Source of the DNA: Candidatus Bathyarchaeota archaeon
GTDB lineage: Archaea; Thermoproteota; Bathyarchaeia; Bathyarchaeales; DTEX01
NCBI GenBank assembly: GCA_963714275.1
Contig: CAVQNT010000001.1
Span: forward strand, 98,098 to 162,097
Direction: 5' to 3'
DNA: 64,000 bases
Positions 391 through 63,846 of the stretch are shown here, one piece after another. Below the pieces are notes generated by a model that was not told the origin of the DNA, did not search any database, and saw only the letters and a list, made by a program, of their open reading frames with translations. Position numbers and translations under genes: made by a program. Positions within the stretch are counted from its first letter, which is position 1. Each line of letters opens with the position of its first letter.

Positions 391-760
391 TTGAGCGAGA
401 AAAAGAAGATATTATACGTCGTAACGAGTGGTGTAGACACTCCTGAACGTACTTATGCTCCATTTATCCTTGCAACTACAGACTGTTGCAATGGGAATAG
501 ACGCCACAATATACTACCTAATAAAAGGAGTTACAGTTGTTAAGCAAGGAGAAGCGGAGAAAATTAAGCTGGGAAATTTTCCATCTTTAAAGCAGATAAT
601 GGATCAAGCAATAAAGGCTGGAGTAAAAATTGAGGTCTGTGAACAGAGTTGCATGCTTCTTGGGTTTGAAAGAGGAGATTTCGTGAAAGGTGCTGAAATA
701 GTAGGTGCAGCAACACTTAACGACCGAATTTTGGACGCGGATGCCGTCCTAAGTTTTTGA
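391..760 (+). CDS. DsrE/DsrF-like sulfur relay protein (one apparent frameshift)
   Basis: TTG at 391 gives MSEKKKILYVVTSGVDTPERTYAPFILATT; +1 shift at AGACT 480-484 joins ORF 455-760 (GVKIEVCEQS, GAATL). Confidence 0.85.
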
Positions 761-779
761 CCTTGAAAGGAGTTATACT

Positions 780-1957
780 GTGATGCGAAAAGTTTACATG
801 GATCACGCAGCTGGAAAGCCCGTTGATGAGCGTGTTCTTGAATCTATGAAGCCATATTTCAATCGAAACTATGGCAATCCCTCATCTATTCATTCTTTCG
901 GTAATGAAGCGAGAAATGCAATTAATGAAGCTCGTGGTAAGGTTGCAGGGTTTATTGGAGATGAGAAAGATGAAGAGGTTATATTCACTTCTGGTGGCAC
1001 GGAGAGCAATAATTTAGCCATAAAAGGCTTAGCTTACGCAAACAAGTCCAAAGGAAACCACATCATCGTCAGTTCAATTGAGCATATGTCCGTGATAAAC
1101 ACATGCAAATATCTCAGCAAGCAAGGTTTCGAGGTTACATTTCTTCCAGTTGATGAATATGGAATCTTAGACATTCAAGCCTTGCAAAGGGAGATCAAGG
1201 AGAAGACGATTCTAGTTTCAATAATGTATGCGAATGGTGAGATTGGAACGATAGAACCAATAAAAGAAATTGGGGAAATAGTTCATGATAAAGGCGCATA
1301 TTTTCATGTAGATGCCGTTGCTGCTGCAGGCCAGATGCCGATTAATGTCCAAGAAGAGAACATAGATTTACTTTCTCTTTCCTCAAATGATATTTACGGT
1401 CCTAGGGGAGTTGGTGCATTATATATTAAGGCTGGAACTCGAATTCAACCAATAATCCATGGCGGCGGACAAGAACGGGGGTTGCAGTCTGGAACCGAGA
1501 ACCTCCGGGAATAGTAGGTATGGGTGAGGCAGCGAAAATTGTTGGATCTGAAATGAAGATTGAGGCAGAAAGATTAATGAAGTTAAGAGATGGCTTTATC
1601 AAAGGAGTTTTAGAGAGTTCACCAGAATCCTATTTAAATGGTCATCCAACTAAAAGGTTGCCAAATAATGTCAATGTTAGATTTAGTGATATTGAAGGCG
1701 AATCTTTAGTATTAAGTCTGGACATGGAAGGCGTCGCCTGTTCTTCCGGATCGGCATGCACCTCTAAAACATTAGAACCTTCCCACGTTCTATTGGCAAT
1801 AGGTTTAAAACATGAGGAAGCGCATGGTTCGCTTCTCTTCACTCTGGGAAAGCAAAACACTGAGGAAGACGTAAACTACGTGTGCGGATTGCTACCAGGA
1901 ATAGTAAAAAGGTTGAGGAAGATGTCACCCTTGACCCCTAAGGAGTTGATAATGTAA
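780..1957 (+). CDS. iscS: Cysteine desulfurase IscS/NifS (frameshift near 1503)
   Basis: [42 protein letters not shown] catalytic Cys loop; two ORFs join. Confidence 0.95.
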
Positions 1958-2337
1958 TGTATAGCGAGAAGGTTTTGGATCACTTCCGGAATCCACGTAA
2001 CATGGGTGAAATTATAGATGCGGATGGCATTGGAACCGTTGGTAACCCAGTTTGTGGAGACTTAATGACTATCTACATAAAGGTGAAAGACGATCGAATT
2101 CAGGATGTTAAGTTTAAAACTTTTGGTTGTGGGGCAGCTATAGCAACAAGCAGCATGATAACGGAGTTGGCAAAAGGTAAAACGCTTGAAGAATCCATGA
2201 GAATAACAAGGGCTGACGTAGCCAATAACTTGGGAGGATTACCTCCTATAAAGATGCACTGCTCAAACTTAGCTGCTGATGGTTTACATGAAGCCATAAA
2301 GGATTACCTCAAAAGGAAAGAGGAGGTTAAAAAATGA
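1957..2337 (+). CDS. iscU: Fe-S cluster scaffold IscU/NifU
   Basis: HFRNPRNMG, NPVCGD, FGCGAAIA, LPPIKMHCS. Confidence 0.95.
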   Translation: MYSEKVLDHFRNPRNMGEIIDADGIGTVGNPVCGDLMTIYIKVKDDRIQDVKFKTFGCGAAIATSSMITELAKGKTLEESMRITRADVANNLGGLPPIKMHCSNLAADGLHEAIKDYLKRKEEVKK

Positions 2338-2492
2338 GGTTTATAAAATGCGAAGAATGCAACGCTGAAATCTCTGACGAGAAATGTTTGTTCGCTGAGT
2401 GTAAGAGAGTAATCAACGGGGAAGAATACTACTTCTGCTGTAAACATCATGCTGACCAGTTTGTCAGAAAGATTCAGAAAAAAACATTTTAA
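2334..2492 (+). CDS. 52-aa TRASH/YHS-like metal-binding peptide (absent from ORF track)
   Basis: ATGA overlap with the iscU stop; MRFIKCEECNAEISDEKCLFAECKRVINGEEYYFCCKHHADQFVRKIQKKTF; CxxC...YYFCC motif. Confidence 0.8.
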   Translation: MRFIKCEECNAEISDEKCLFAECKRVINGEEYYFCCKHHADQFVRKIQKKTF

Positions 2493-2548
2493 AAACACCT
2501 CTTTGAAATCTTTCTCAAGTGTATGTTGAATATTGGGGAGTTTAGCAT

Positions 2549-3470
2549 TTGGAGAACTTAAAAACCATCTCACTAGAAAGTAAAATCAGAGAGCTTAAGG
2601 AACAGAAAAATGCGATTATCTTGGCTCACAATTACCAAATAGGTGAAGTCCAAGAAATAGTCTGACTATGTCGGTGATTCCCTTGGTTTAAGTCAAAATG
2701 CTGCTAAAAGCGATGCAGAAGTGATAGTGTTCTGCGGTGTACACTTCATGGCTGAGACAGACTTCTATCCTATGTCCAGACAAAATTGTGTTGATGCCAG
2801 AAATAAGAGTCTGGATGTCCAATGGCTAACATGATCACGGCAGAAGCTCTCAGGGCTTTGAAGGATAAACATCCAGAAGCAACAGTAGTTTGCTACATTA
2901 ACACATCAGCAAAGGTTAAAGCAGAAAGTGACATCTGCTGCACCTCATCCAACGCGGTTAAGGTGGTAGAGTCACTATGTGCACCTGAAGTCATCTTCGT
3001 TCCAGATAAATATCTGGCACATTATGTTTCCACTAGAACTGAAAAGAAAATCATTCCTTGGAATGGTTTCTGCCCTACGCATGTAAAGATACTGCCAGAG
3101 CACATTCTAGAACAAAAAAGCTGACATCCAGAAGCAGAAGTAATTGTTCATCCAGAATGTATACCATCAGTTATTGCCTTGGCAGATGATGTGCTTTCAA
3201 CTGGAGGAATGTGCAGTTATGCACGAGTATCAAAGGCCTCTGAAATAATTGTAGGTACAGAAGTCGGAATACTACACAAGTTGCGAAAGGAGAACCCAAA
3301 TAAAAAATTTTATCCTGCTTCTGAGTCAGCAATTTGCCCAAATATGAAGTTAACAACATTAGAAAAAGTATTGTGGTCACTTCAAGACATGAAACATGAA
3401 ATTATTGTACCTCAAGAAACTCGACTTAAAGCTGAAAAAAACTGTTGAAAAAATGTTAGAAATTGGTTAG
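2549..3470 (+). CDS. nadA: Quinolinate synthase NadA (several apparent frameshifts and one in-frame stop)
   Basis: [47 protein letters not shown]; breaks at 2659, 2759, 2808, ~3120, ~3440. Confidence 0.92.
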
Positions 3471-3746
3471 TCAGAAGCAATCGATAGGCCATACCTGAAT
3501 CTATCTGTCCACATGCAAAAATGTTTCTTCGCCCCCATAATGACTGACAATATATTTCGGTGGACACTTCGGGTTAAAGACCTAGTTTGTATATCAGGTC
3601 CTAAGGATTATTTGTTTTATAATAGTCCTTTATGGGTAGGATAAAGCGCATCATCATATGGATTTCTTAAGAAGATATGAACACTGACTGCTTAACAGCA
3701 ATGAAAATATATGTAAAGTTCTCTGAAGACTAAGTTGAGTGTTAGA

Positions 3747-8295: not shown

Positions 8296-8322
8296 AATGA
8301 TCTACAACTAAAACCTGCCAAT

Positions 8323-10841: not shown

Positions 10842-12321
10842 GTGCCAATGTCAAGAGGACAGACGATTCCTGCGGTTATCTTCTTACTTTTATTAGGCAG
10901 CAGTATGCCATTTAACGCCTTATCTCAAAATTCCGAAACTGAAAATCTTCAATGGTTGAAAGTAAAGGGCAGGTGGATTGTCGATGAAGACGGAAACTCT
11001 GTGCTCCTTAGGGGTGCAGACTACATGGGGATGGAGTTCGGTTGGTTTTACCATTCTGAGGAAGACTTTTCTAGGATGAAGAGTGGGGTTTCAATGTTGT
11101 TAGACTTCCAATAGCGTGGAGTGACATTGAGCCAAGAGAAGGTTATTATGATGACAGCTACTTAGCAATACTTGACAGGGTGATTTCATGGTGCAGGAAG
11201 TATGGTCTCTACATTATCCTTGACATGCATCAATGGAACTGGGCACCGAAATTTGAAGGAAACGGGCTTCCGGATTGGGCTGTTGAGCAGTATTCTGACC
11301 AAGACCAAGCTAAAGTCGGATTTTTCAGGAACGAAACCATACAAGACCAGTTTTTCAACATGTGGCGTTATGTAGCCAACAGATACAAAAATGAGTCAAC
11401 GATTTTTGCATATGATATTTTTAACGAACCTAATGTTGACTACAGATTAATGAGCGAGGAATCTTTCTTAGAAAGGCTGTATAACTTCTACCAGAGTGCT
11501 GTAGATCACATTAGGGTGGTGGACATCAGACATGCCGTAATGATTGAGCCACCTTGGGGAGGCGGAATCACTGATTGGTCGATGATTTATGATACTAATT
11601 TAGTGTTGTCCACTCATCTTTACACTGAAGGGACAGGGATGGAGTGACGGGCTACGATGGGAATTCCAGCGAGCTTGAGGCTGACTTCTTAGTGGGTTAT
11701 AATTTCTCTTTGATTTGGAATTTACCTTTAGTCATCGGTGAATTTGGCGTAGGCTCTGCAGCAACCAAAGCGCATGAGTGGACAAGAGATTTCATGAACA
11801 TCTTTGACAAATACATGGTGAGTGCTTGTTGGTGGTCGTATTGGAGAGATGACGACTCGATGGGGTTGCTCACGTCGAATGGTGAAGAAAAAGAGAACCT
11901 GCTTTCAGCCCTGGTCAGAATTTATCCTTGCAGGTTCAACTATGCCCCTACAAGAATTGAGTGACGATATCGACATGAATGTATCGGAGACAGAGTGGTA
12001 CTTGGACAAAGAGGACAATATTGTAGTACATTTAAAATGCCATCTAGAATAGGTGGCAACCTCTCGAAATCCACCAATTTTGACTCAGCGTTCTTTTCCT
12101 TCATTAAAGATACTTCCGAATTGAGGGTCACACTTCATGGTCAAGGAGGAGGTTACGTTCAAATTGGTCAGAAACCGTCAGAAAATCCATCTAACGAAGA
12201 AAGACCTAAATCGATATTTCGAGATCCGGTCTTCATTTTTTCTTTTACTTTAAACATCATACTATTATTGACTGTCATAGCTCTCCGTCACAGGCGCATG
12301 CGATCTCAGAAATATCCATAA
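10842..12321 (+). CDS. GH5 glycoside hydrolase (cellulase/endoglycoceramidase-like), signal peptide and C-terminal TM anchor; several apparent frameshifts
   Basis: LRG, GFNVVRLP, IILDMHQ, DIFNEP (acid/base), STHLY, IGEFG (nucleophile), WWSY. Confidence 0.88.
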
Positions 12322-14760: not shown

Positions 14761-15158
14761 CGAAAGAAGTATTGGACAGCTGTTTCCTCATTGAACACTT
14801 TTACTCAACCGACACAGAGATGAGGCGGAAGACTTCCCGTAAACTAAGGGAGTGAATAAAGAGTAGGGAGGGTTTGCTCCCGACCATAGTCATTGGCGAG
14901 GTCGTTCGTGTAGTTTGCGAAAAAGTGGGGAAGGAAGAAGCGGAAGCCTGCTATCTATCTCTAATCAGAAGCGGACTACGTATCCAGGACTTGAATCAGG
15001 ATATTGCAAGACAAGCTGGCTTGCTTAAATGCCGATACAGGAACATTTCTATGGGTGACTGCATAATTGCCTCATCAGCCATAATCAACAAAGCAAAAGT
15101 AGTTTCAGACGACACGCATTTTGACTTCATGAAAGAAGTGAAACGTGGATGGATCTGA
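14757..15158 (+). CDS. vapC: PIN-domain toxin VapC (in-frame TGA at 14853, probably a GAG CTG miscall)
   Basis: EVLDSCFLIEH...PTIVIGEV...SMGDCIIA...VVSDDTHF acidic PIN residues. Confidence 0.8.
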
Positions 15159-18026: not shown

Positions 18027-18996
18027 TTAACAGGACGGGTCAAGTAAGATTTTTATAGCCTCCTTTTGGCGCAACATCCTAAACGCTTTCTGCCATTCCG
18101 TCATTGGCATCACATCACTGATGATTGCGTCCAGCTTCAAACTCTTTGTGCGAATCATATCTACAACCTCATCCAAATATTCCAAGTTGCCCCCCCATCT
18201 GCCTAGGATGTTAATGTTCTGCTGTGCCACTTTCTTCATATTCACATTCCATGGTCCTACGCCTATGCCAGTTACTGAAATGCGACCATTTCTAGCGATG
18301 CATTCCACAGCTGCCTCGATTGCTGCAGCAGCGCCGGATGTCTCGAACCAGACTGAAGGCGCATCTTCATTCTTTATCTTTTTAATAGTCATTTGGCTGA
18401 ATAGTAAGGCCTCATCAGACTCCCATCTCCAAAGCTTTAGGTAGGCGTACTTTCTCGTCACCCGGTCCACCTAAAACCGTGATGTGGGATGCACCTTCAA
18501 GCCTAGCAAAGTTAGTAACAAGTAGGCCAACTGGTCCCGGACCAGAAATTACGATACGTTCCCCTTTTTGTAGACGGATGATATCCCGCACCCATGATAT
18601 AGGTCCAGTTACTATCTCAAACTGGGCAGCCTCTTTTAGTGTAATGCCCTTCGGCAATTTCCACATGGTATCTGCTGGCACCTGAAAATATTCCGCAAAA
18701 GCACCATCTCTCTCCCTGCCAGGCCATGGAGATGGACCTCTATGGAAGGCGACAGCTTCACCCTCCTCAAATTGGGTCACATTCTTGCCAACTTTAGCTA
18801 CTACACCTGTATACTCATGACCTAAGATAAGTGGTGTTGGAATCTCATCCAATCCGCTCTCTCGGTGTAAGTCACTCCCACAGATTCCACAATAGGTTAC
18901 CTTCAGAAGGATATCATCGTCCCCAATTTTTGGAATAGGGACATCTTGAATCTCAAGGTTACCTTTCCCTGGTGCTGTCTTAACCAAAGCGCGCAT
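18027..18996 (-). CDS. Zn-binding sugar/threonine-dehydrogenase-like MDR (frameshift at 18417)
   Basis: CGICGSD, LGHE, GPGPVG; continues in ORF 18027-18470. Confidence 0.88.
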
Positions 18997-19208: not shown

Positions 19209-21234
19209 TCAATCGCGTACGCAGAATCGATAGTCTACGCAAAGTTCAGAGTCTATCATCTGGTGTCCTTCCAACTTTGGAAGCGAGAACTCGACGCGAT
19301 CATTTTTCCGGTCAAAGTTTAACGCAACTTGATCTGGCACAGACAAAACCTCTATAATCTTCTTTGGTACTTTCACTGAGACTTTAACATTGAACAGTGG
19401 TATTACATCCTCTATGATATCGAAATCTTGGCACCGTCTTTCAGGCACATAGTGAAGCAAGTGCAATATCCAACGATCTTTGGCAGATTGCTCATTGACC
19501 GTGACCAGTGTCGTTGTGGGAGCTCCTAAACGTACTAAGGGTTCTGGAAGTAAAATTTCCAGAGCGTTTAGGAATAGTTTTTTACACCATCGTGGTGCGT
19601 TCTTGTTGTATTGATGGAAGATGGGATGCATGAAATAGATTGATCTACCATTCTGGATAATGCCAGGGTAGCCTACTTTTCCTGTAGATGGGGTGTGACG
19701 ATGCGAGCAGAAATGCTTGTAAGTTCGGTTGAAATATGGAACAACAGTATCAGCCAATACTTGGCTACCCGGTTCAACCTCTACTTCTAAGCCATTCATA
19801 TACATCACATGTTCAGTCTCTGGCAGTCCTTTACCGATATCTCCCTTAGGAACGACGAAGTCAGGGCTATAAGGTGCTGGTCCTTTCAATCTGACGCCGA
19901 GGTTTTTGAGGGCGAATTCAGTCTTAGAGCTATTCAAACCAGATTCGTAAGAAACAATGATTGAGCCACCTATAGCAACGAACTGTTCTATCTTGTGGGC
20001 TAGATCCGTGGAAACTGGGATGTCATCAGGTAATATGACAACCTTGAAGCCCAATAAGTCGGAAGCAGAATCGATAATCTCGAATTGATGAAAGCCCTCT
20101 TGTAGCATACATGTAACGCCGATTATTGCTGGAGGAATGTTGCCACGGTAAGATGGGCCCTCCACAAATTCTTCGGGTGTAAAGACGCCTATTTCGCTTA
20201 TAGGTCGCGCATTCTTACACCATGGCTCTTTCTTCTCAACTTCTGAATAGACAGCTCCGATCAGGTTATAGGTGACTGGACAGATTTTTCCGGAAGGATG
20301 TAGTTGGTCGCCTATGGAGCATTTCGCAGCCAGAGTGCTAACATCCTGAAGCACTCGAATTCTAGGGCTTGCTTGTTCTTGAATGAATGGAAATCTCCCC
20401 ATGAAGTATGGAACTTGCCGGTCATGCCCATCAGATCTATTCCGAGGTTACGTGCATAGCGCGCGGATATTGGAAAGTGCATGTATCCCCAACCTCCGCT
20501 GGGTAGTGATTCCAGTTCGAAGTGTGTATAAGTGTCCACTGTACTTCTATGCATGGGCCCGATGTGCCCAGAATTGTAGAAGATTGTGCAGTCTTCGTTG
20601 CGCTTGCGTACAAAGTTTGTCATCTCAATCTTAAAGTTATTTATGGTTTTAAGTCCATACTCCCATCGTGCCTGTGAGTCTGAGGGTTCCAGATCTTCTT
20701 CTTCCATTCCTGTTTGGCAATATCTACATGAGCAGTCGCGCGCTTGGACTATATCAAAGAAGATGCCATCTGTAGGTAGTGTTTGGAGAACTTCATTGAG
20801 GTGAGCTTTTAGGAAGTCTCTATATGGCGAGTTTACGCAAAGTGTTCGATAAAAACCAGGTTCATATGGTTTTGTACCGATAGGACACCCGTTTTCATCT
20901 ATCACCAGCCATTCCGGATTTTCGTTGGCAGTATAGTGATCCCATTGCACTGTGGTGTAGATAGGTACTCTGATATTCCGCTTGTGACAAGCCTCGATCT
21001 GTTCCTTCAGAAGATTCCTGGTCAAGTAAGGGTGACGCCTCTCTGGGAAGACCTTAGTATCAAAGTAGATCCAACCATGATGGCATCTCCCAAAGCAGGT
21101 TATTGAGTTGACCCGAGCTTCTCCAAAGTAGACGCAAATTTTTCAGGATCGAATTCTAATCCTACATTGACAATTTGTTCGCTTGTATGAAAATCAAGAT
21201 GGACTTGACGAAATCTCAATTCGATCTTGTTCAC
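19209..21234 (-). CDS. GH151-like alpha-L-fucosidase (GHL6 TIM barrel + trimerisation/Rossmann domain + beta-sandwich); two frameshifts
   Basis: RFRQVHLDFHTSE...VNSITCFGRCHHGW, IRVPIYTTVQWD, DGIFFDIV, ELESLPSGGWGY, GMTGKFHTSWGDF, SIGDQLHP. Confidence 0.85.
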
Positions 21235-27901: not shown

Positions 27902-27988
27902 ACAACAAACCATCCAAAACTTTTTAGTAAAAACACAGAACTATTAGTACGCACATATATAAAATTATAATCCTTTATGCAAACGTCG
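27197..27988. repeat. 792-bp direct repeat, copy 1 (SDR body plus promoter)
   Basis: Matches 29380-30171 (offset 2183); two mismatches seen by eye. Confidence 0.95.
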
Positions 27989-28075
27989 AAGTTTATATTT
28001 CCTTTTTTATTCTACTCGGTAAAAATGAAAAAACTTAATAATTGAACATAAAGATTATGCTAATTGTGTTTAAAA

Positions 28076-30084: not shown

Positions 30085-30171
30085 ACAACAAACCATCCAA
30101 AACTTTTTAGTAAAAACACAGAACTATTAGTACGCACATATATAAAATTATAATCCTTTATGCAAACGTCG
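29380..30171. repeat. 792-bp direct repeat, copy 2
   Basis: Matches 27197-27988. Confidence 0.95.
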
Positions 30172-42689: not shown

Positions 42690-42703
42690 TACGATAAAGT
42701 ACT

Positions 42704-44169: not shown

Positions 44170-44921
44170 ACTTGTTGGGGTGGAATTTTTTGGTGCTTAA
44201 TGTTTAGGGGGTTATGTTTTGCCAGAGGTCTACTTGAGGCCTTACCCTGGTTTTGCCGACTATACTCATTTTCCCCGTGTTTCCAATGTCTGCAACTTTT
44301 GCCTCGTGAGTTCCGGTTCCTAGGTCTATGATGTGCTCTGTGAAGTCTCCCTTTCCGTCGTTAAGGTAGATTATCTGGCGAGGAACATTGGGGTTGTTCT
44401 GCATTTTTTCTCCCACATAAATGTCCATGTGTCCATCCTTGTCAAAGTCTGCCACACCTAGGCTGTGAGGATGAAAGAGGTCGTCTTTGATCATGTGCAT
44501 CTTCCAGTCCGACCCTTCAAACCACACTAACCTGCCGTTGTCGCTTTCGCATTCGCTCATCACCAAGTCGAGAACTCCGTCTTCATTCATGTCAGCCACC
44601 TGAATCCGAGTTCTAGAGAATACTATCCCTTCCCATACCCTCGCATGAAACTCTTTCAAGATTTTTCGTGACCATTTTCCTTTTGGCGTTTTTGGCGGCT
44701 TGAAGATGTTTGGGCCAGCCACAACTTCGTTTACTCCGTCTCCGTCAAGATCAACAATCGCAAGGCCTTCTATGACAATATTGTCGCAGATGAGATGACG
44801 ATATTTGCTTGGCCAAGGAGAAACCGTCGGATCAGGAGGAACATCATAATAGACCAGCACTTTTGCTTGCTGCGAGGGCACTAACAGCTCATCTTCGCCA
44901 TCGCCATCAACATCTCCCACC
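44170..44921. repeat. 752-bp inverted repeat, copy 2
   Basis: Reverse complement of 28465-29216. Confidence 0.95.
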
Positions 44922-45292
44922 GCTTGGCTATGGTATTTTTTAAGGCTGTTCTCTAAAATATGCCTTGTCCACTTCTTAGTTGGGTCAGAAGGATTCTCAA
45001 ACCAGTAAAGCTCATTACCGTTATCAGGTTGTCCTGCTACAATGTCCAGATGTCCATCACCATTAATGTCAACAACAACACCACCCGCCTCAAGATTTGC
45101 TCTCGCAATTACATGCCTTTTCCAGTGCGGATACTCATACCAGACTAAGTAACCTTCTTCAGGGGATTTTTCATAATTAGCGATGATTACATCATTGAAG
45201 CCATCGCCATTTATGTCGGCAACCAAACAAAGAGACATTCCGGTTGCAATGGCATGTTCATCGATGATTTTGTGACGAAATTTAGGATTCAT
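44204..45292 (-). CDS. FG-GAP/VCBS-repeat beta-propeller protein, copy B
   Basis: C-terminal ~240 aa identical to copy A; N-terminal ~125 aa divergent. Confidence 0.9.
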   Translation of the reverse strand: MNPKFRHKIIDEHAIATGMSLCLVADINGDGFNDVIIANYEKSPEEGYLVWYEYPHWKRHVIARANLEAGGVVVDINGDGHLDIVAGQPDNGNELYWFENPSDPTKKWTRHILENSLKKYHSQAVGDVDGDGEDELLVPSQQAKVLVYYDVPPDPTVSPWPSKYRHLICDNIVIEGLAIVDLDGDGVNEVVAGPNIFKPPKTPKGKWSRKILKEFHARVWEGIVFSRTRIQVADMNEDGVLDLVMSECESDNGRLVWFEGSDWKMHMIKDDLFHPHSLGVADFDKDGHMDIYVGEKMQNNPNVPRQIIYLNDGKGDFTEHIIDLGTGTHEAKVADIGNTGKMSIVGKTRVRPQVDLWQNITP

Positions 45293-45557
45293 TTTGCATG
45301 ACATTGCCAAACACAACAACCATCGAGCCACGATCTACCTATTTAGACTTTCCATTGATAATGCGTCTCCCCTGTCTGGTGCTCGAAGCCTCATCCGTTA
45401 ATCCCAGACTTTCCCACTTTATGGCTTCATTGTCTATCTACACCGTTTGCTTCCAAAGCTAGTAGACCACTTGCTGACTGTACAACAACATAAAATTTAA
45501 TACACATATGGTCTGTATAATCTCAGGTTAAATATTCCACGAGGAGGACAGCTTGAA

Positions 45558-47749
45558 ATGAATTCTATGATCGATGTAATCTCATCTAGTTTACCTGATG
45601 AGTTGGAGTCTCCAGTAAAAAGTGAAGACCATAGCAACCATGTTGTATACCTTGCCTTGAAAGGACATACAAAACTGGCGTCAGATCACCTTCTACATAG
45701 GGAGATGAAAGGACACTTAGAGGAAACCGTAGGAAACGTAATTCGCCAGCTTAACCTTGCCTTCAATAAAGACTCTACTTGAACAGACATGTAAAGAAAC
45801 ATCAAAAGATAAGGAATCCATTCTTCTGTGCGCAAGGGCATACGATGTTCTCTTGAACTCAGCCCTCAACTTATTCGGCTTAGAAAGAAGGATAGTGGGA
45901 TTCTCCAAGAACGAGGTTGAAAACACGCTCAAGAAGATTGCGATTGCTCTAAGTGACCTGGAAAACCTAGAAAGAAAAGGCGTCTTTTGTGATAGAAACC
46001 AAGAAGCACCGATAGCACGTGCTGTCGTTGACAATATTATAAAAGAAATGAAGAAAGTGATGGCGGTGAATTATAGACTCCAGGTTCAATGGAAGCCTAT
46101 GTTGCCAATGGAATCGAGAAAGATATAGACAAAGATAACATAACAGCGTCATTTTTAAGCTTAGCAAAGCAGCAAATCCAACAAAACATCTACTATAGAA
46201 TAGTCGAAGCCGGAATGTGTAGATTTGGCAACGACTACGCTATAGGGCTTAGATGGCTTAGACATCTGGGATTTGACCAGGTCTCAACGAATCCGTCTCT
46301 AGCAGCAATAGCCTATGACGACGATCCCACTCAATGGGAAGGCTACAGGGGAGAAAACCTATGCCCAGATTTCAAGACCATGGCCAGAAGGCACGCGGAA
46401 TTGCTCAGTGACTTGGAAGCTCATGGAGAGGAGATAACTGCAGCCGGAACTGAGGTAAGCATCTGGCCGAACCTCGCGATATTCAGACCAATAGCCATAG
46501 CCTCAAACATATTTAAGGGCATGGTCAGTCTTCAACTGAACCCAAAAGTCGCAGACAACGTTGAGGAAAGCGTAAGGTACGCCCTTAGGTTCTATATTGA
46601 CGCGGAGGAGTTTCTTAGAAAATATGATGAGTATTTGCTTTGGGGATATTCTGAAAATGTTGAAAGAGGAAGACCAAACATTGTATTCAAAGTAGCAGGA
46701 AGCTCACCGCAGCTATCGAGATAACTAGGAAACTTGAAGCTTTGGGTATTGGTACAAATAATACTTTAACTTCTACCGTCTCCCAGGAAGTAGAGTTGAT
46801 ACTGGCCAAGATGGAAGGAAGGGCAGAAGCCATTAAGAAAGGAATTCCCTTGACGACCGTCTACGAGACAACCATGAGCGGCAGACTAGATGATCACGTA
46901 AGAGAAGTGCAGGCTGAAGAAATGCTGAAGAAAGCCCTGGAAAAGCTGAATGACAAAGAGGTTACTTTAAGGAAACTAGCTGAACGTCTGAAGGCATGGG
47001 ATGACACTAAAGGACAAGATTCTCTCGAAGAGAAGATAAGGACAGTATGCAGTCGTCGATACCTAAGTCCACTAACTAAGGAGCCTTTTGTAGACCTACT
47101 CGCAGAGACAGGAGTTCCCTCCAAATCGAAAGACGAAGTGGCAAAATACCTCGACACTTTAGAGAACGACATAGAATGCTGTGGAATAGCTGTGACAAAA
47201 CAGGTTTATGAGATCTTTTTCACCTCCGAAAACAGACCAAAATGGACAGATTATCTCAAGTCAAAGTACGGTCTAACCCAAGCGCAAGCCATAGAAGTGA
47301 TAAGAGGAATTGATATTCTTCCAGCGGCTAAGAGGAACGCCAAAGATACTCTTTTGACATTGGCGGGAACGAATATGACTAATACGGACTTCCCGAACCA
47401 ACAGATGAATGTACTGACAAAGGGTCATGAGCCGGGCTTCACTCTGGAAGATTACAAAGAGTCAGTTCTTAAAGCCCTTGACCCAATAACATTCCGTAGA
47501 CTAACCAAGGAATGGAGCAGCATCAGCGAGCTCTTCATAAAGTCGTATGAACTGACTCCCAGTCAGCAGAAAGTTTTGAAGGAAGCAAAGATTGCGAATT
47601 CAGGAAAGTATGGCAACCGCGGGCTTCTACCCACCGAATGGCAAAATTTTGGTGTCACAGTGAAGACGATGACAGAGTTTTCAAACAGTTACGAACAATT
47701 CAAGAAAAGATGTCTCGCTTTCGTCCGCAAAATCTCAAAAGAGAAATGA
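45558..47749 (+). CDS. Large (~730 aa) transaldolase-family protein with helical insertions; three frameshifts
   Basis: RFGNDYA, VSTNPSL, GMVSLQLNP, PNIVFKVAG (Schiff-base Lys), GIGTNNT, SGRL. Confidence 0.8.
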
Positions 47750-48049: not shown

Positions 48050-48989
48050 TTAATCCTCAAGGTTAAGCCATCTGATCTCTTTCGCTGTCAATGATAACGA
48101 AGTAGCTTTGACGCATGAAGCCGCCTCTTCCTTGGTATGGGAACCCACAATCGGGACGATTGAGAAGGGCTTGTGTAGTAACCAAGCCAGCGCCACCTCA
48201 ACAGCTGTATATCCATTTCTCTCGCCAATCTCCTTCGCCCGTTTCAGTCGCTCCATGTTATCTTTCGTGCAATAGAGTTTGATCAACCTCTTTGTAAAGG
48301 CATCTAGATCTGACCCTCCGGTGTCAGGCGTATATCTGCCCGGTAAAGAAACCCCTTGCCTGAGACGACCAGGGGATTAGTGGTATCCCGGTCTCTTCGT
48401 GCCAGCGTTCGCCCATTTTGTCCGTTGTCACTGAATAAGGATAGAATCCGGCTGCAGGAACTGCTAGACTAATATTATTGCTGACCATAGCAAATCCCTT
48501 AATACCCTGCTTGCGAGCGTACTCATTCGCCTCAATAATCCGCCGATACTCCCAGTTCGATGCTCCCAGAGCACGTACATGTCCCTCTGTAATCTGGTTG
48601 TTCAATGGATCAAGTATTTCTGCCACAGGTATCATAGGGTTATCGCGGTGAAGCATATACACGTCGACATAATCCGTTCGTAATGCTGCAAGACTTGCTT
48701 TAAGCTCCTCACGCATGACTGTGGCGAAATCCTCCCCAACTCCACATTTGGTAATGATTACGACATGTTCACGCATTGATCGGCTATCCATCCACTGCCC
48801 AACAATGTCTTCACTCGTCCCATAACTTCGTGCTGTATCAATAACAGTCCCACCGAATCCTACATATGTATCCAGTACACCGAACCACGTGTCTATACTA
48901 CTTATGTTGTAGAAGTGGGTCCCCAAAGCCAATTTCGACACTGGCTTACCAACACCCTCTATAAGATACTTCGCAGACATCTTCGTCAT
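48050..48989 (-). CDS. Aldo/keto reductase (frameshift near 48340)
   Basis: LALGT, IDTARSYG, IITK, MLHRD, GASNW, WSSQARG, VALAWLL. Confidence 0.9.
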
Positions 48990-51239: not shown

Positions 51240-52182
51240 ATGAAAATATCCCTGCATTCCGTAAGCTATTCCGGCTTTTTCTATAGTGGTAAATCTTTAT
51301 CTATCGAGGAAATTATAGATAAGGCCTCTAGCTTTGGTTATGATGGCATTGAACTGATGGCGAAAAGGCCGCATGCAATGCCTATGGATTTGGATCAAAA
51401 GGCAAGAAAGAGAATTCGAGAGCTCACTAATTCATATGGTGTTGAACTGGCTGCCTTGGCTTCTTACACTGATTTCAGCGGACCAGAGGTCTTGAAGAGA
51501 GAACTTAACTTGCTTTACATTCACGATGTCCTGAAGATGGCTAGAGACCTGGATGTTAAGATAGTAAGAGTTCTGGCAGCTGGCAGTGGAGATGTAGACT
51601 CCACTTTATCCTACTCGAAGCATTGGGAACTCTGCCGCGAAGGTCTTAAGGAAGCATCTAAGTGGGCTGAGGATTATGATGTCACTTTAGTCCTGCAGAA
51701 TCACCCACCTGTAATGGAATCCTTTAAAGACGTCATGGAAATGATAGAAGAGGTAGGCAGTAATTTTCTCAAGGCCTGTATAGACCCGGAGACTTCTTAC
51801 CTGGACAAGGGAGATAGATCCTTATTCTAAGGAAAAAGGTGACATGCTCTTTGAAACGTACGATAAGTGTAGAAACCTGCTTGCTTTCATCCACATAGGA
51901 GACTACGCCGAGAGACAAGGAAAGATCTTGTGGCTACCTGGAGGTGGCGGATCAAGACTTAGAGCTGATAGGCTAGAAAGAGTCGTTCTGGGAGAAGGGA
52001 CTTTTGGTATGATCGCTGAGTCGTTCATCAAGGCCTTGAAGAAAATCAACTACAACGGATTCATCTCCTATGAGATATGTGAATCTAGGTACACCAAACA
52101 CAAATTAATAGACTTCGAAACAGTTGAGAAAGAAGCAAGTAGAGCAGTCAAATATCTAAAAGAATTAATTGCCAAAGTTTAG
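51240..52182 (+). CDS. Sugar phosphate isomerase/epimerase (TIM barrel), frameshift at 51790
   Basis: LHSVSYSG, GYDGIELMAKRPH, LQNH, HIGD, SYEIC. Confidence 0.88.
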
Positions 52183-52369: not shown

Positions 52370-53392
52370 ATGAAAAAAATTGGCTTGGGTCTGGTGGGAG
52401 CTCGGTTTCTTATCTGATATTTTCGCCCGATGCTACAAAGAGAACCCTCAAGTAGATCTTATTGCTGTATCCTCTCAAACCGAAGCGCATGCCAAGGGAT
52501 TTGCAGAAAAAAACGGGTTAAAGGCTTGGTACACAGACTACGATAAGATGTTTGAACGGGACGATATAGATGCTGTCAACATCTGTGTCCCGAACTATCT
52601 TCATGCTCCGGTAACCGTATCCGCAGCTGAACATGGGAAGCATGTGCTTTGCACAAAGCCTCTCGCGATCTCGGTAGAACAAGCGGATCAGATGACCAAG
52701 GCTTGTAGAACCGCCAGCGTCAAACTAATGTACGGTGAGAACTGGCTTTTTACGCCTGCAGCCGAGAAAATATATGCGATAATTAAGGAGGGTGCTTTGG
52801 GGAGAATCTTAGCTATTGAAGCCCGAGAACAGCACGGAGGAAGCCATTCAATTTACGCAACAAAGAAGGAGTATGCTGGTGGAGGTGTACTCCTTCAAAT
52901 GGGCGTTCACCCCATTGGCTTAATTATGCAAGTGATGAATCAACCGGTTAAACGGGTTTATGCAGAACTGGGAAACCTACTTCACAACCTTAAAACTGAG
53001 GATTATGCTGTGTTATTAATGCGGTTTAACGATGGGAGTCGGGAATGGCGCAATCCAATTACATCACAAAAGGAGGTATGCAAGACAGGATCGAAATCTA
53101 TGGCTCAGAAGGAATGGCTTTCATGAACTTGACTCACGCTAACCCAATACATATCTACAGTGACATTGGATATTCATATGTTGCTGAGAAATCTACAATG
53201 AGTTGCGGGTGGACCTCGCCCATTATTGACGAGAAGGCTCAATTTGGGTTCTGCAACATGCTCAGTCATTTCGTAAAATGTGTCATAGAGGATGAGGATC
53301 CAATTCCAACTGGCGAGTTCGGAAAAGAAATCCTTAAAATAGTATTCGCAGGATACGAATCTTACGAAAAGAAGACCGCTATCACACTCTAA
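52370..53392 (+). CDS. Gfo/Idh/MocA oxidoreductase (two frameshifts)
   Basis: MKKIGLGLVGAG, PNYLH, VLCTKP, GGGVLLQMGVHP, ED.A. Confidence 0.9.
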
Positions 53393-55776: not shown

Positions 55777-56818
55777 CTACAGTGCTATTTGGATTTTCAT
55801 GGGGTTTCCGGTTTTGTTGATGTTGGCTTCAAATGCTTCCTTAATTTGTTTAATCGGGAAAACATGTGTAACATATGGTTTCACGATGGCTATGCCTGAG
55901 GATACAGACTTTTATCGCCGCGGGATACACGTTTGCATAACGATGTATGCCTTGGATTCTGAGTTCTCTGGAAATGATCTTGGTGAGAGGCATCTGAACA
56001 TCTCTTGATGGATAGCCGACAAGCACAATTATACCTCCAGGTTTCACAATGTCAATGGCTTGTTGGATTGCTGATGTTGCGCCTGAAGCCTCAATTACGA
56101 CATCGACGCCTTTGCTGTCTGTAAGCTCCACGATTTTTTCAACCATATCTTCTTCAGCTGAGTTGATGACTCCCTTTGCCCCATACTTCTTTGCGTACTC
56201 GAGCCTATAATCGATGATGTCGGTCACAAACGTTTCATGGGCACCATAGGTTTTTGAGGCTTGAAGTGCCATCTGCCCGATTGGTCCTGCGCCTATTACT
56301 GCTACAATATCGTGAACTGTAACCTTGCCCATTTTGGCAGCCATCATGCCAACTGCTAAGGGCTCAATCATAGCACCCTCTTCATATGACATTTCGTCTG
56401 GCATAACGTAAACATTCTGTTCAGGCGCAGAGACATATTCAGCAAAAGTTCCATCGTAAGGTGGAGTACCATAGAATTTGACCTCGCCGCATAAGTTGTA
56501 CCTTCCCTTTCTACAATATTCGCATTTTCCACATGTGAAACCGGGTTCAATAACTACTCTTTGTCCAATCTTGAGATTTTTGACTTTGTTACCTATATTT
56601 GCTATTTCTCCTGCGCATTCATGTCCGAGAATTAACGGTTCCTTAACGATATATGAAGCGACTGAGCCTTCTAAGTAATAATGTACATCGGATCCGCATA
56701 TACCTACTCGCTTCATTTTCACGAGTACTTCATTAGAGCCAATTTGAGGGATGCTTACCTCTTCTACACGTAGATCTAAAGGTTTATGTAATACAACAGC
56801 CTTCATTTTTTCGTTCAC
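55777..56818 (-). CDS. Sorbitol/xylitol (polyol) dehydrogenase, Zn-MDR (frameshift at 55906)
   Basis: GICGSDVHY, LGHE, CGKCEYCRKGRYNLC, TPPYDG, EPLAVG, GAGPIG, HRYANVYP. Confidence 0.92.
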
Positions 56819-58810: not shown

Positions 58811-60311
58811 ATGCCCAAGACTGAAAAAGTGGCTATCATAGGCGCAGGGATCATAGGCGCTTGCATAGCCAGAGTACTATCCAAGTATAAGAACTTAGAG
58901 GTTCACCTCATAGAGAAAGAGGTCGATGTCGGTTGGGGATCAAGTAAAGCCAACACAGCGATAATACATGCAGGCTATGATGACGACCCCAAAAAATACC
59001 CTGTTAGAGCTAGGCTATGCATGAAAGGAAACGCCTTATGGAGAGAAAGGTGGTTAAAGAGAGCTAAACATTTCGGCTAATTGGCCAGGAGACCTCGTTA
59101 TTGCGACAGAAGATGACCAAACTAGACTGCTAGAAGAATTGCAGAAAAGAGGTAGAATAAACGGGGTTCCCGACATTAGAATTATTTGGAATAAGAAAGA
59201 GCTGGAGCAAATAGAACCAAACATAACACCTAACGCGATTGCAGCTCTTCACGCTCCCACAGCAGGTCAGTTTAGGCATCCTTCTGAAGTAGTAATTGCT
59301 GTAACCGAGAATGCTGTCGATAACAGCGTCAAACTTCACCTCGCAACTAAGGTGACTGATATCAAAATAAGTCACGGTCATGTTAGGACCGTTAAAACAA
59401 GCATGGGTAGTATTGATGTGGATTGGGTGATTAATGCTGCAGGATTATATGCGGATGCCGTTAGCAATTTGGTCGGTATAGACGGTTTCAGAATCCATCC
59501 GAGAAAGGGAGAATATTTAATCTTCAGTAAGGATGCTTACCCCAAGACAAGAAGAATTTTATTTCCCACGCCATCGCGATGGACCAAGGGCATTGTTGTC
59601 ACTACAACTGTGGACGGGAATCTGATGTTGGGTCCAAACGCTCAGGACTTGCCCAAAGAGGAAAGCGAAGCGACAGACACGACGCCTCAGGGTCTCAATT
59701 TTATATTGAAAGAGGCTATAAAAATTGTGAAGGCGCTTCCCCCAAGAAATAGGGTTATAAGAACTTTCGCTGGGTTGAGGGCTAAACCGGAACCTTCAGC
59801 AGATTTTATGATAAATGCTTATGACGAGGTTGATGGCTTCATTAACGTTGCTGGCATAAGATCGCCGGGTTTTACATCCGCTCCTACAATTGCTTACGAG
59901 ATCGTAGACATAATGAAGGCTAAGGGGGCTAAGTTAATTAAAAAGAAAAAGTGGAATCCATACCGGAAGGCAAGAAAGGCGTTTAGAGAAGCAACGTATC
60001 GAGAGAGGGACAGACTGGCGAAGAATGACCCAACATATACGAAGATAGTTTGTCAATGTGAACTTGTCACCGAAGCCGAGATCATTGAGGCCATAAGAAG
60101 GGGGGCAACAACCCTTGATGGAATCAAGTTTAGGACACAAGCGTTGATGGGTGACTGTCAAGGTGCTTTCTGCGAATTCAAAATTGCGCGGATTCTAGCA
60201 AGAGAATTAGGGATACCGGTGTGGATGGTTACAAAGAACGGCTCAGGATCAGAGATTGGAATAGGAGATATCACCGTTCTCTTTGAAGGAGGAAAGGCGC
60301 AAAACAGATGA
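58811..60311 (+). CDS. glpA: FAD-dependent glycerol-3-phosphate dehydrogenase large subunit with BFD-like [2Fe-2S] domain (frameshift near 59060)
   Basis: GAGIIG, SKANTAIIHAG, INAAG, PRKGEY, GIRSPG, CQCE...GDCQGAFC. Confidence 0.88.
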
Positions 60312-61566
60312 AGAAGCATATCTCAGACATTTTAATCATTGGTGCAGGTGCAGCTGGTTTATCAGCAGCATCCAAAGCAAAAGAACTAGGCGTTGAAAGA
60401 GTTGTTCTCTTAGACGAGAAGGAGGAGCCCGGCGGTGTATTGCCGCAATGCATTCACCCCGGATTTGGGCTTCAATATTTTAAGGAGGATTTGACAGGGC
60501 CAGAGTTCGAGCTACAGACTCTATGATAAAATGAAAACTTTCGCGGTGGAAGTCTACAATTCGGCTTATGCAATGGAGACTATGTATAACAAAAAATAAG
60601 AAAAAACTCAAAGCAGTTTCCTCTGAGGGACTCATCGAGTTCAACTCCAAGACAGTAATCATCACTTCAGGTGCACGGGAGAGACATTCCTTTGAGATTG
60701 GCATTGCTGGATATAGACCTGCTGGTATCTACACCGCTGGTCAAACACAGACAATGATGGACCTTTACGGAGTCATGCCAGGGAAAGAAGTTGTGATAAT
60801 AGGTTCGGGTGATGTGGGGTTAATAATGGCTAGGAGGTTTACTTTACAGGGTGCTGAGGTCAAAGCGGTAGTAGAGATTCTCCCTTACCCTGGAGGCTTG
60901 ATTAGAAATGTTCAACAATGCTTATTGGATTTCGATATACCACTTTACCTTAGTCATAAGGCTATAAGAATATTGGGGAAAAATCGGGTCAAAGGCGTAA
61001 CAATAGTCAAAGTAGATGAGAAACTTTCTGAAATACCTGGAACAGAATTTGAGGTTAAGTGCGACACCGTTATCGTCTCTGCGGGGCTGATTCCAAGGGT
61101 TGAACTTTTGGAGCGAGTTGGCGTTGAAATGGATCCTTCAACAAGAAGTGTCGCTGTGAATGAGTTCTTAGAGACTTCGATTCCAGGAGTTTTCGTCGCT
61201 GGAAACGCATTAGTGATAAATGATCTTGTCGATTACGCAGCAATACAGGGCGAAACAGCTGCAAGAAGCGCTGTCGATTACATCCAAGACAATAGAATTT
61301 CTTCGACTCGTTGGAAGCCTGTTATCAAAGGGAGAAACTTAAGGCTCATTGTTCCACAATACATTAGTGGCCAAAGAGATGTAAGCTTCTATGCAAGAGT
61401 CATGGAGCCCGAAGAACGCGTTTACCTTATAATTCCAGAGATTGAGATGAATTTGTATCAGAAAAAAGTGAGCCCCCCAGAGATGCTTAACTTCATAATC
61501 TCAAAAAGAAAATTCGAGATCCTGCAAGATAATAAGCTCGCAGTATCTATTGAAACGAGGAGATAA
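60308..61566 (+). CDS. NAD(P)/FAD-dependent oxidoreductase subunit of the G3PDH complex (two frameshifts)
   Basis: GAGAAG, GGVLPQCIHPGFG, GARER, GSGDVGLIMARR, RNVQQCL. Confidence 0.88.
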
Positions 61567-61575
61567 AACGAAATC

Positions 61576-61971
61576 ATGGACGAAATTACAGAAAAAATAA
61601 AGACGATCTGCATCATTTGTCCTGTTGGTTGCGAGATGGAAGCAAATATACTAAAAGAAAAGAACGAAGTTCTAGAAATTAAAGGCTTTAGATGTCCCAA
61701 AGGCAGAGATTACGCCGAACGTGAAATCGTTGACCCACGTAGAACTCTTATGACAGTCATCAAAGTTAGAAACGGTCACCTACCAGTAGTCTCAGTAAAG
61801 ACTAGTAAACCAATTCCCAAAAATAGACTATTCGACGCCGTCAAAGCCGTTTCAAAGATCGAGGTTGAAGCGCCTGTAAAGATAGGAGATATAATCATCG
61901 ATGATCTTCTTGGCACTGGAGTATCTGTCATCGCTACGAATAACGTAAAGAAGAATTATAATCGAATCTAG
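61576..61971 (+). CDS. DUF1667 small Fe-S subunit
   Basis: CIICPVGC...RCPKG..YA..E..DP.R, VSVKT..PIPK. Confidence 0.9.
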   Translation: MDEITEKIKTICIICPVGCEMEANILKEKNEVLEIKGFRCPKGRDYAEREIVDPRRTLMTVIKVRNGHLPVVSVKTSKPIPKNRLFDAVKAVSKIEVEAPVKIGDIIIDDLLGTGVSVIATNNVKKNYNRI

Positions 61972-62524
61972 ACTATAATATTAGGGTTTTTCGGAAGGAT
62001 TTGTCATTGCGTTTTAGCTCACTAGTGAATTGAAATTCTACGCCTCGTTACTTAGGTAGAGATGTATACTGTTCCTTTTACGCCTATTGCTTAAGTATAA
62101 TATTATGGATTTTTCATAAAATGGAGAAAAAAGGATGTTGAGTTGTGCATTGGTTCAGCACATTGTTAGACTCTTTGTTACTAGGTTTGCGGATATAGAA
62201 ACATATCCTGCATTAACTGTTGTGTCACGGTTAATCGTTACATCTGAGCTGCTACAGGTCAAAGTGCTATCTGGCTGACTAAAATATAGTTTTCACTTTC
62301 CTTTTTATTTTAAAGATCGTTTAGGCGAGTTTTAGTCTGTTAACACCTCATGGGATGACAAATCTTGAGATGTTTTTTGACACTATTTCTTCGTTGTTTG
62401 GTGTCTTCACGTAAGCTAAGACATTCCTCTGTTTGTAGCCTTGTAAGAAATGAATAGCCATTCACTGATATCCAACTCTGTTGTTTTGTCAAGCAGGTCA
62501 TAGCTTAACTAAAGGCATCCGCAA

Positions 62525-62595
62525 TAATCATTAGCTGACTAATCATGGAAACATAGCCTCCTATCCCCGACCCCAATCACAGCAACATCATATTA
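62525..62595 (-). pseudogene. lpdA: N-terminal remnant of dihydrolipoamide dehydrogenase (E3)
   Basis: YDVAVIG.G.GGYVS..I with indels, directly downstream of E2; no continuing ORF. Confidence 0.6.
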
Positions 62596-62654
62596 AGATG
62601 ATCTAGGCACTTCCCAGCCACTTGAAACGTTCTAGGGATGAATAAACTTATCTT

Positions 62655-63846
62655 TTATTGATTCTCGGATATTTCCTCTTCAAGGATCTGTTTCAACCGT
62701 TGCATAAACCTTGCTCCCGGTGCGCCGTTCACAACCCGATGGTCAAAGGACAAAGTTAGACGCATTGAAGGTCGCGCTTCTACCTTTCCTTCGATTATAA
62801 GAGGCTTCTCGATGATAGCGCCTACTCCCAAAATAGCAGTCTCTGGAGGATTAATTATCGGCACAAAAGTCTCCACACCGTACATGCCTAGATTTGTTAT
62901 CGTGAAGGTTCCGCCCGACAAATCATCATACGATGCCTTACCTGCCCTAGCCCGTTTGATGAGGCTTCTAGATTCCTCAGATATCTCGGTCAAAGATTTC
63001 CTATTTGCTTGGTGAACTACAGGAACCAGTAATCCAAGATTCCCTTCGGCCTCAACTTCAACAGCGATCCCAATGTTTACATCTTCGAAGACCTTTAGTT
63101 GATCATTCTCCAGGGTGGAATTGAGAATTGGGTTCACCCTTAGTGCTACGAGCACAGCCTTAACGAGTATATCCGTGAAAGAGACGCCATCTTTTCCCTT
63201 GGATTTCAACTCCGTGGTCACTCTCTCGCGTCGACTCTGTCATCCTTGAGGCATCAACCTCAATCATGATGGAACAGTGGGCAGCTGTCTTAATGCTTCG
63301 GCTCATGCGTTCAGCAATCGTCTTCTGCATGCCTTTGAAGGGCACGATCTTAACAGCCCTTGTGTCTTTGCGGAGCTCAATCAATCGAAGAACATCTTCC
63401 CTTGTGATTCTACATCCTGGACCAGTTCCACGTATCTGAGTTAAATCTATCCTATACTGCTCTGCAAGGCTCCTAGCCAAGGGAGATGCTCGGATTTTCT
63501 CGGCTTCTTCTTCACGTTTGGGCATTCCAGTGGGCAAAAAGACTTCAGCTCTCTCTTTTCGGACTGCCCTTTCTTCGTTAGCTTTTCCAATATTGGGTAA
63601 TGGTTCGCCCAGTTTTCCGATGAAGGCTATGGGTTCGCCGATTAAGACTTCGCTTTCTTCTGGTGCGCAAATCTTAATTAGAATGCCTGAAGCAGGCGAC
63701 TCAAGCTCGGTGGTTACTTTGTCGGCTTCAATCTCGACAAGAGGTTCATCTTTCTCGACAGGTTCTCCCTCCTTTTTCAACCACTTCACAACCGTACCTT
63801 TCTGCATTGTTAGGCTGTACCTTGGCATTACAACATCAGTTACCAT
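62655..63846 (-). CDS. Dihydrolipoamide acyltransferase E2 of a 2-oxoacid/acetoin dehydrogenase (frameshift near 63230)
   Basis: Lipoyl EADKV, PSBD ASPLAR...GTGPG.RIT..DV, TFTITNLG, DHRVVNGA. Confidence 0.92.

Follow-up and report, generated by a model that had tools for sequence, protein, structure and literature searches.

Why should some 20 genes within 64,000 nucleotides of an archaeal genome each lie in pieces? The stretch in question, hereafter the window, is the whole of positions 98,098 to 162,097 of contig CAVQNT010000001.1 (G000:C1:98098-162097, where G000 is the genome of the window and Cn its contig n) in assembly GCA_963714275.1 of a Candidatus Bathyarchaeota archaeon, a member of the Bathyarchaeia (2.64 Mb, 10 contigs, ~43% G+C, 0 N; reported completeness 91%). 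When all 195 of its stop-to-stop open reading frames (ORFs) of at least 70 amino acids were scanned against Pfam, about 20 genes proved to be split, with adjacent ORFs carrying consecutive parts of one family. They include Aminotran_5, NadA, GH5 (four pieces), two GHL6/GH42M glycosidases, two ABC ATPases, and a permease, as well as AKR, AP_endonuc_2, GFO/IDH/MocA, DAO, Pyr_redox_2, and E2 acyltransferase genes.

An initial annotation, made from the letters alone, had placed these breaks on corrupted AGCT sites and had read them as a footprint of AGCT methylation. Its central observation was right, and its interpretation is the best supported of those that we weighed. The frame breaks are consensus errors, not mutations, and throughout the genome they are specific to AGCT when set against controls. 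We consider it likely that they are long-read errors of the nanopore type at modified AGCT sites; as the source of the modification, the best candidate is an intact orphan PF01555 methyltransferase encoded at C5:127528-128244.

AGCT at the frame breaks

It is important to remember how common the words in question are. The window holds 251 AGCT, 156 AG[AT]CT (AGACT or AGTCT), 142 AG[GC]CT, and 128 AGTGA or TCACT, so the presence of such a word near a break says little and controls are needed.

For a homology test, 430 ORFs of at least 150 amino acids from 400 kb of the relative G010 were compared by tblastn with the whole genome, and 187 of them gave matches at 45% identity or above. The relatives compared share only ~65-79% DNA identity with the genome, and none belongs to the same species. 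Frameshift junctions were defined as adjacent high-scoring segment pairs (HSPs) in different frames, and random windows inside the same HSPs served as controls. This gave 68 unique junctions in ~176 kb of aligned DNA, or about one in every 2.6 kb of coding sequence aligned; 51 were of the extra-base and 17 of the missing-base type. AGCT or AGNCT stands at 47 of the 68, against 14.9 expected. Intact AGCT accounts for 30 (7.8 expected), AG[AT]CT for 16 (3.4), and AG[GC]CT, which is not enriched, for 3 (5.3). Control palindromes lie at chance: GATC 3 (3.2 expected), TGCA 7 (6.3), ACGT 4 (7.3), CATG 8 (9.0), TCGA 7 (9.7), and CTAG 3 (2.7). The excess of AGCT over other tetramers, which the initial annotation's claim implies, thus holds genome-wide. 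CCGG, at 6 junctions (2.4 expected), including one at window 1505-1508, may be a second, weaker error motif. Homopolymers of at least five bases occur at 12 junctions, where 9.2 are expected, and homopolymer errors were dropped as a main cause.

The second test needs no reference. Pairs of same-strand open stretches of at least 80 amino acids, overlapping by no more than 120 nt and lying in different frames, were collected, and the k-mers at their junctions were compared with those of length-matched pieces of long ORFs. The 926 junctions found genome-wide comprise both genuine gene boundaries and frameshifts. Among the 537 of the extra-base type, the two most enriched 5-mers are AGACT (74 vs. 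26.1 expected) and AGTCT (61 vs. 19.5), both with a z of 9.6, and AGCT occurs in 149 (90.1 expected); the 389 missing-base junctions yield mostly start/stop-overlap and ribosome-binding words. All nine contigs longer than 9 kb carry 28-41 junctions per 100 kb, and an uneven error load among contigs was accordingly dropped as an explanation.

Repeats within the genome offer a third comparison. Copies at least 97% identical were taken from a self-BLAST, and since either copy may carry the motif, this overlap test inflates every motif by about 1.5- to 2-fold. Of 42 indels, 16 overlap AGCT (0.8 expected), with the next-best palindromes at 3 or fewer; of 179 substitutions, 25 do so (3.5 expected), with the next-best at 12 or fewer. 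Seen from the sites, 41 of 129 AGCT (32%) are altered in the other copy, compared with 2-11% of control palindromes (TGCA 6/124, ACGT 9/79, TCGA 4/90, CATG 6/124, AATT 5/261). The 41 variants are AGT/ACT (8), AACT/AGTT (7), AGTC/GACT (5), AGACT/AGTCT (4), AGTG/CACT (3), and others (14); the AACT/AGTT class, which is of the C>T/G>A type, is therefore the second commonest. Separately, substitutions over ACGT (10 of 179, 1.8 expected) and GTAC (8 of 179, 1.2 expected) exceed the general inflation, in small numbers. The bases that flank affected AGCT sites are mixed, with all four represented, and the motif is therefore the bare 4-bp AGCT.

As a stop-creating variant, AGTGA is weakly enriched genome-wide: of 390 in-frame stops with an open stretch on either side, it accounts for 13, where 7.4 are expected. 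The 154 in-frame stops found within tblastn HSPs were left out of the statistics, as many HSPs run on through shifted stretches.

Consensus errors and the putative modifying enzyme

Why should a single tetramer be affected? That one palindromic tetramer is hit, with homopolymers at chance, fits a base modification acting on nanopore-type basecalling. Chemically modified AGCT would give rise to systematic errors in a nanopore-type long-read consensus. The consensus misrenders AGCT as AGACT or AGTCT, one base being added in the middle of the motif; other renderings are an indel in or beside the motif, the loss of one base (AGT/ACT), AACT/AGTT, and AGTGA. Of the breaks, which number roughly one for every 2-3 kb of coding sequence, about two thirds sit on AGCT. 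We infer the sequencing technology, the modification of AGCT, its N4-methylcytosine (m4C) type, and the responsible enzyme, which would be a beta-class PF01555 methyltransferase encoded outside the window and homologous to the persistent orphan AGCT m4C methyltransferases of ammonia-oxidising archaea.

The initial annotation had seen no methyltransferase in the window, and indeed none of the 195 scanned ORFs matches a DNA methyltransferase family. Its proposal that the genome be searched for an N4-cytosine or C5 enzyme had a divided outcome: a six-frame search found intact PF01555 candidates, and PF00145, the C5 methyltransferase family, gave no match at E≤0.001 in this 91%-complete genome. 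The same search returned one D12-class enzyme, several PF01555 matches in all, and Type I/IIG-like N6 enzymes, partly in pieces. When four methyltransferase candidates were searched against NCBIfam, every match fell far below cut-off.

The gene at C5:127528-128244 (candidate 2) is a 240-amino-acid open frame without stops. Its PF01555 match (C5:127618-128208) scores 118.9 bits, with 120.8 bits also obtained, against a curated cut-off of 26.7. It lies between a transaldolase gene and a gene for a CDC48 N-domain protein; an ABC ATPase is a further neighbour, and no nuclease adjoins it, which makes it an orphan. All 6 sampled genomes of the window's family carry it, as do 2 of the 144 others sampled in the class. 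At 41% identity (E 1e-51, 71 invariant columns), it resembles one PF01555 protein that is common to all five AmoA-positive genomes of a single family, ammonia oxidisers by their gene content, and the motifs DPPF and LGSGTT are invariant between them. In two of these five genomes, that protein is the sole full-length PF01555 match. Each of the five also has a D12-class enzyme.

As an observation in its own right, a distance of 230-310 bp separates this D12-class (Dam-like) gene from the end of amoA in all five genomes (G165:C1:386925-388457, G171:C1:1309890-1311462, G192:C1:148233-149768, G187:C1:175219-176702, and G177:C1:1345865-1347431).

Published methylomes give these enzymes a probable identity. 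According to the available part of PMC10609329, all 14 Nitrosopumilales genomes examined carry HG11, a beta-class AGCT m4C enzyme, and GATC is modified to N6-methyladenine (m6A) by HG3, an alpha-class enzyme; for N. maritimus SCM1, Table S3 lists HG3 and HG11 only. Because only these two occur there, one alpha-class and one beta-class, the PF01555 protein of the AmoA-positive genomes is best assigned at present as HG11-like, by elimination. Candidate 2 is then most likely a homologue of an HG11-like enzyme and a putative maker of AGCT m4C. The genome shows no avoidance of AGCT (observed/expected 0.95; GATC 0.66, CCGG 0.65, and GGCC, strongly under-represented, 0.34), as would be expected of an orphan enzyme more than of a restriction system that targets AGCT.

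Other methyltransferase genes were set aside. Candidate 4 (C2:292310-293428), a circularly permuted PF01555 protein with HPPY, adjoins the D12-class enzyme (C2:291517-292263), and we take the pair (C2:291517-293428) to resemble the two-methylase DpnII arrangement for GATC. The product of C6:138828-139904 looks like a tRNA methyltransferase, and the gene at C6:356263-357406 is in pieces.

Several observations weigh against modified AGCT and candidate 2 as the explanation. Neither AGCT nor AGNCT is present at 21 of the 68 homology junctions (~31%), and in the window breaks lacking an intact AGCT lie at 1505-1508, 20312-20447, 36862-36891, 48324-48376, 53036-53039, and 63160-63239. One-base insertions dominate (the 51 extra-base junctions), whereas the methylation footprint described in the accessible text of PMC11610603 is mainly C>T and G>A. 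An apparent "repair" of AACT/AGTT to AGCT against the ~70%-identical relative G010 occurs at 37 of 814 sites, rank 25 of 64 contexts on a background of 4%, and so shows no excess, in a comparison of low power at such high divergence. As for the enzyme, an identity of 41% does not fix the specificity of a methyltransferase, and the equation of the ammonia-oxidiser enzyme with HG11 rests on elimination. Candidate 2 has DPPF, as do its ammonia-oxidiser homologues, and not SPPY or SPPF, the motif more usual for N4-cytosine enzymes. Finally, the genome encodes a second candidate, C2:149557-150354, which has SPPY and adjoins a gene for an HNH nuclease.

Could AGCT be modified, and cause the errors, through another enzyme, chiefly this second candidate, or could the mark be something other than m4C? 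We regard this as possible but rather unlikely. The C2 gene (candidate 1) is intact, its PF01555 match scores 166.1 bits, and its SPPY is typical of N4-cytosine enzymes. It stands directly upstream of the HNH nuclease gene (195 amino acids), the pair occupying G000:C2:148974-150354 on the minus strand of locus L029 (858-2271). The methyltransferase keeps 69-92% identity across 80 related loci in Bathyarchaeia, Chloroflexota, Nitrospirota, Planctomycetota, Methanoperedens, and others, and the nuclease gene is kept in 50 of the 80, over many bacterial and archaeal phyla, at ~65-86% identity among the loci listed. The pair is a restriction-modification module that is both highly mobile and highly conserved. 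The best match in a PDB sequence search for candidate 1, 2zie, is a "putative modification methylase," an entry silent on specificity. Against a role at AGCT, candidate 1 shares no more than 25-27% identity with the PF01555 enzymes of the ammonia oxidisers and is sporadic, with close orthologues (at least 68% identity) in only ~7 of 150 class genomes. A restriction system that cuts AGCT would also be expected to select against the site, which is not under-represented, although a system acquired recently would have left no such trace so far.

A basecaller, assembler, or polisher might instead be weak at this particular k-mer, on unmodified DNA too, with no methylation involved; we think this improbable. 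Homopolymers are the usual weakness on unmodified DNA, and here they are not enriched. The errors fall on a single palindromic tetramer, controls matched in composition stay at chance, and the genome holds an intact methyltransferase homologous to those of ammonia oxidisers. In related archaea, AGCT is a documented and persistent methylation target (PMC10609329). The prevalence of insertions speaks for a k-mer weakness, such errors being untypical of the methylation footprint published in PMC11610603.

We hold the breaks to be consensus errors for the following reasons: the fragments rejoin into full-length conserved proteins, sister copies hold intact AGCT, housekeeping genes are affected at a rate that no living genome could bear (the essential IscS, NadA, and E2 acyltransferase are among those broken), and the density is even across contigs. 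Most of the broken genes are very likely intact, as the initial annotation maintained, with homology that continues across the rejoined fragments. That the indels and substitutions are real, with AGCT a mutational hotspot and the split genes true pseudogenes, is scarcely credible: the AGCT-to-AGTT/AACT differences between paralogues are those that a methylated cytosine would leave on deamination, but deamination cannot make one-base insertions, roughly one frameshift per 2.6 kb would be striking housekeeping genes (the three just named and ABC ATPases), and near-identical repeats differ at a third of AGCT sites but at few control palindromes.

Individual sites in the window

How well do the listed sites stand up one by one? 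All 12 AGACT or AGTCT strings are present where the initial annotation placed them, and their frame-breaking role has independent support at 11; at 26851, the sole HSP crosses in one frame through a poorly aligned stretch with several stops, and the site is ambiguous. Its other classes of site fared unevenly, as described below, and its list was incomplete, lacking a further AGTGA stop at 11960 and the breaks without an intact AGCT given above.

The first sites lie in a TusA-DsrE-IscS-IscU-NadA cluster that occurs twice in the genome, at window 27-3468 and at C4:82691-86132, with 85% DNA identity; relative to each other, both copies have indels. AGACT at 480-484 (+) puts one extra base into the DsrE-like gene, with an extra-base homology junction at 470-495 (4 queries) and an indel against the C4 paralogue at 484. 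Three AGTCT/AGACT insertions at 2659-2812 (+; 2659, 2759, and 2808) fall in the N-terminal part of NadA, where the paralogue lacks one base at 2661, 2759, and 2810, and at the last of these it has an intact AGCT. NadA is split further (ORFs 2807-3121 and 3125-3445) by an in-frame TGA within AGCTGA at 3119-3124 (+); two compensating indels surround this AGCT relative to the paralogue, and a homologue has Ala at the stop. The cysteine desulfurase gene of the cluster has a break without AGCT (AACCTCCGGG) at 1505-1508 (+), located by a homology junction from 6 queries and by a paralogue indel at 1504.

Other AGACT/AGTCT sites break metabolic genes. AGACT at 18417-18421 (-) splits a zinc alcohol dehydrogenase whose ADH_N and ADH_zinc_N domains are on separate fragments, and deletion of the middle base merges 210 into 339 amino acids. 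AGTCT at 26657-26661 (-) lies in a transaldolase-like gene, within an 11-nt junction interval (tcaatAGTCTt) and beside the homology junction at 26661-26662. In a GHL6/GH42M glycosidase gene split by AGACT at 35279-35283 (+), the ORF merges from 397 to 667 amino acids, and the homologue L131 matches from query 16-311 up to 35284 and, in another frame, from 35283 with query 311-678, so that the two parts abut. A conserved gene of unknown family has AGACT at 45770-45774 (+) and an extra-base homology junction at 45751-45820 (10 queries). AGACT at 51790-51794 (+) splits a xylose-isomerase-like TIM-barrel gene, with AP_endonuc_2 positions 1-159 on one fragment, 178-248 on the other, and an ORF that merges from 197 to 314 amino acids. 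Near the 3' end of a further zinc alcohol dehydrogenase gene, AGACT at 55906-55910 (-) coincides with a homology junction at 55901-55923 (5 queries). The Pyr_redox_2 gene is shifted twice at 60510-60581 (+), by AGCTACAGACT (60510-60520) and by AGACT (60577-60581); HSPs of the homologue L173 run from query 1-128 to 60517 and, in another frame, from 60580 with query 149-452.

For AGGCT and AGCCT, the three strings are where the initial annotation reported them, at 23523, 39441, and 39694, but as a class they occur at breaks only as often as by chance (above). A one-base deletion at AGCCT 39694-39698 (-) in a permease gene (BPD_transp_1) does merge 250 into 339 amino acids; a one-base edit lengthens the ORF by only 11 amino acids at 39441 and shortens it at 23523.

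Two AGTGA had been read as false stops, and both strings are present. The one at 36996-37000 (-; TCACT on the forward strand) makes a TGA in an ABC ATPase gene. In four homologues the residue there, which immediately precedes the SGGQ/ERQR signature, is L, I, or F, a sequence comparison that makes a false stop convincing. The AGTGA at 14851-14855 (+) cuts the N-terminus off a PIN-domain gene; the Pfam PIN match begins at profile position 30, no homologue HSPs were obtained, and a false stop is plausible. A third such stop, AGTGA at 11960-11964 (+), separates the GH5 fragments 11629-11961 and 11965-12318 and has the same frame on both sides, as far as the sequence alone can tell. Between repeat copies, AGCTA is found paired with AGTGA as a variant.

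Nine one-base losses or gains had been placed in or beside AGCT. An intact AGCT is indeed present at 21118, 37678, 46710, 52399, 59060, and 60510, and all of these agree with the homology junctions, 21118 more loosely (junction at 21127). There is none at 11082 (AGTGGG), at 32422 (AACTCG), or at 63230 (GTCGAC), nor in the 80-nt interval around the last. Two junctions of the missing-base type have an intact AGCT, one within the gene for the second ABC ATPase (37677-37680, -; homology junction 37660-37681, 4 queries) and another at 46711-46714 (+; homology junction 46709, 11 queries). In the FAD oxidoreductase (DAO) gene, AGAGCT marks an extra-base junction with its AGCT at 59062-59065 (+), the homology junction being at 59057-59059 and the interval 23 nt.

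The duplicated SDR gene gives a direct comparison of AGCT with AACT, at 27230-27233 vs. 29413 and at 27678 vs. 29861. The initial annotation had counted these as the only two mismatches in 792 bp. They are the only two internal ones, and the BLAST alignment of 801 bp has 5 mismatches, the other three lying at alignment columns 6-8, at the repeat edge. The near-identical SDR genes (27134-27940 and 29305-30123) flank a gene for an FG-GAP repeat protein (28064-29179), a second copy of which, 92-94% identical, lies on the opposite strand at 44207-45334.

Many of the genes named here belong to a carbohydrate/peptide catabolic island at window 19212-63855, which holds the two GHL6/GH42M glycosidases, GH5, several xylose-isomerase-like TIM barrels, GFO/IDH/MocA oxidoreductases, an Opp/Dpp-type ABC transporter, a glycerol kinase-like FGGY gene, and a DAO/BFD, Pyr_redox_2, and DUF1667 set. 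Gins51 is also among the window's genes in the Pfam scan and, with the overall gene content, identifies the DNA as archaeal; an Rfam scan of the window gave no matches. The closest public matches to one gene of the record are Bathyarchaeia metagenome-assembled genomes at 90-92% amino-acid identity. When metagenomes were scanned with the solute-binding protein gene (window 40514-41932), 27 stretches matched, none of which encodes a relative or is a near-identical contig.

Consequences and comparison with known systems

What should users of this record bear in mind? Extrapolated from the 68 junctions in ~176 kb, the assembly probably contains several hundred false frameshifts, and an annotation of it would over-call pseudogenes, split proteins, and understate completeness (91%). 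Motif-aware or short-read polishing at its 11,737 AGCT and 5,884 AG[AT]CT sites would repair much of the damage. At the same time, the errors can be read as a methylome obtained at no extra cost, and they point to AGCT modification in a family of Bathyarchaeia as well. The kind of artefact and AGCT m4C as an archaeal mark were known already; what is new is the likely presence of the mark in this family, together with a named candidate gene. More speculatively, the orphan-PF01555 AGCT mark could be old and vertically kept, common to this Bathyarchaeia family and the ammonia-oxidising Nitrososphaeria, and serve replication, repair, or regulation rather than defence, and the insertion-dominated signature could mean that it is a different or bulkier cytosine modification than m4C; we put this forward as a tentative idea with the odds against it. 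A full-text literature search combining Bathyarchaeia, methylation, and AGCT, with bioRxiv preprint supplements outside its scope, returned no paper.

How, then, does this case compare with systems already described? M.AluI, a C5-cytosine methyltransferase of PF00145, shares the 4-bp target AGCT. It differs as a C5 enzyme, of a family without a match in this 91%-complete genome.

The errors themselves have a close parallel. PMC11610603 (Genome Res 2024), in the text available, describes C>T and G>A errors that arise from DNA modification in nanopore-only assemblies, with short-read or duplex polishing as the remedy. The errors there, like those here, persist in the consensus at methyltransferase motifs, and its G>A and C>T changes have their counterpart in AGCT to AACT/AGTT. 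The present case differs in that one-base insertions (AGACT/AGTCT) dominate, that the motif is AGCT and the organism an uncultured archaeon, and that technology and modification are deduced from the errors.

For the enzyme, the closest known systems are the orphan methyltransferases HG11, HG16, and HG19. PMC10609329 documents AGCT m4C in Nitrososphaerota and Methanomicrobiales, as a mark that persists there through orphan enzymes. Candidate 2 differs from these orphans in its lineage, Bathyarchaeia, a word absent from that paper, in that its specificity and methylated base are predicted, and in being carried by only 2 of 144 sampled class genomes outside its family. It resembles them as a beta-class PF01555 protein with no adjacent nuclease that is conserved in its lineage, and the 41% identity to the Nitrosopumilaceae enzyme extends over its whole length.

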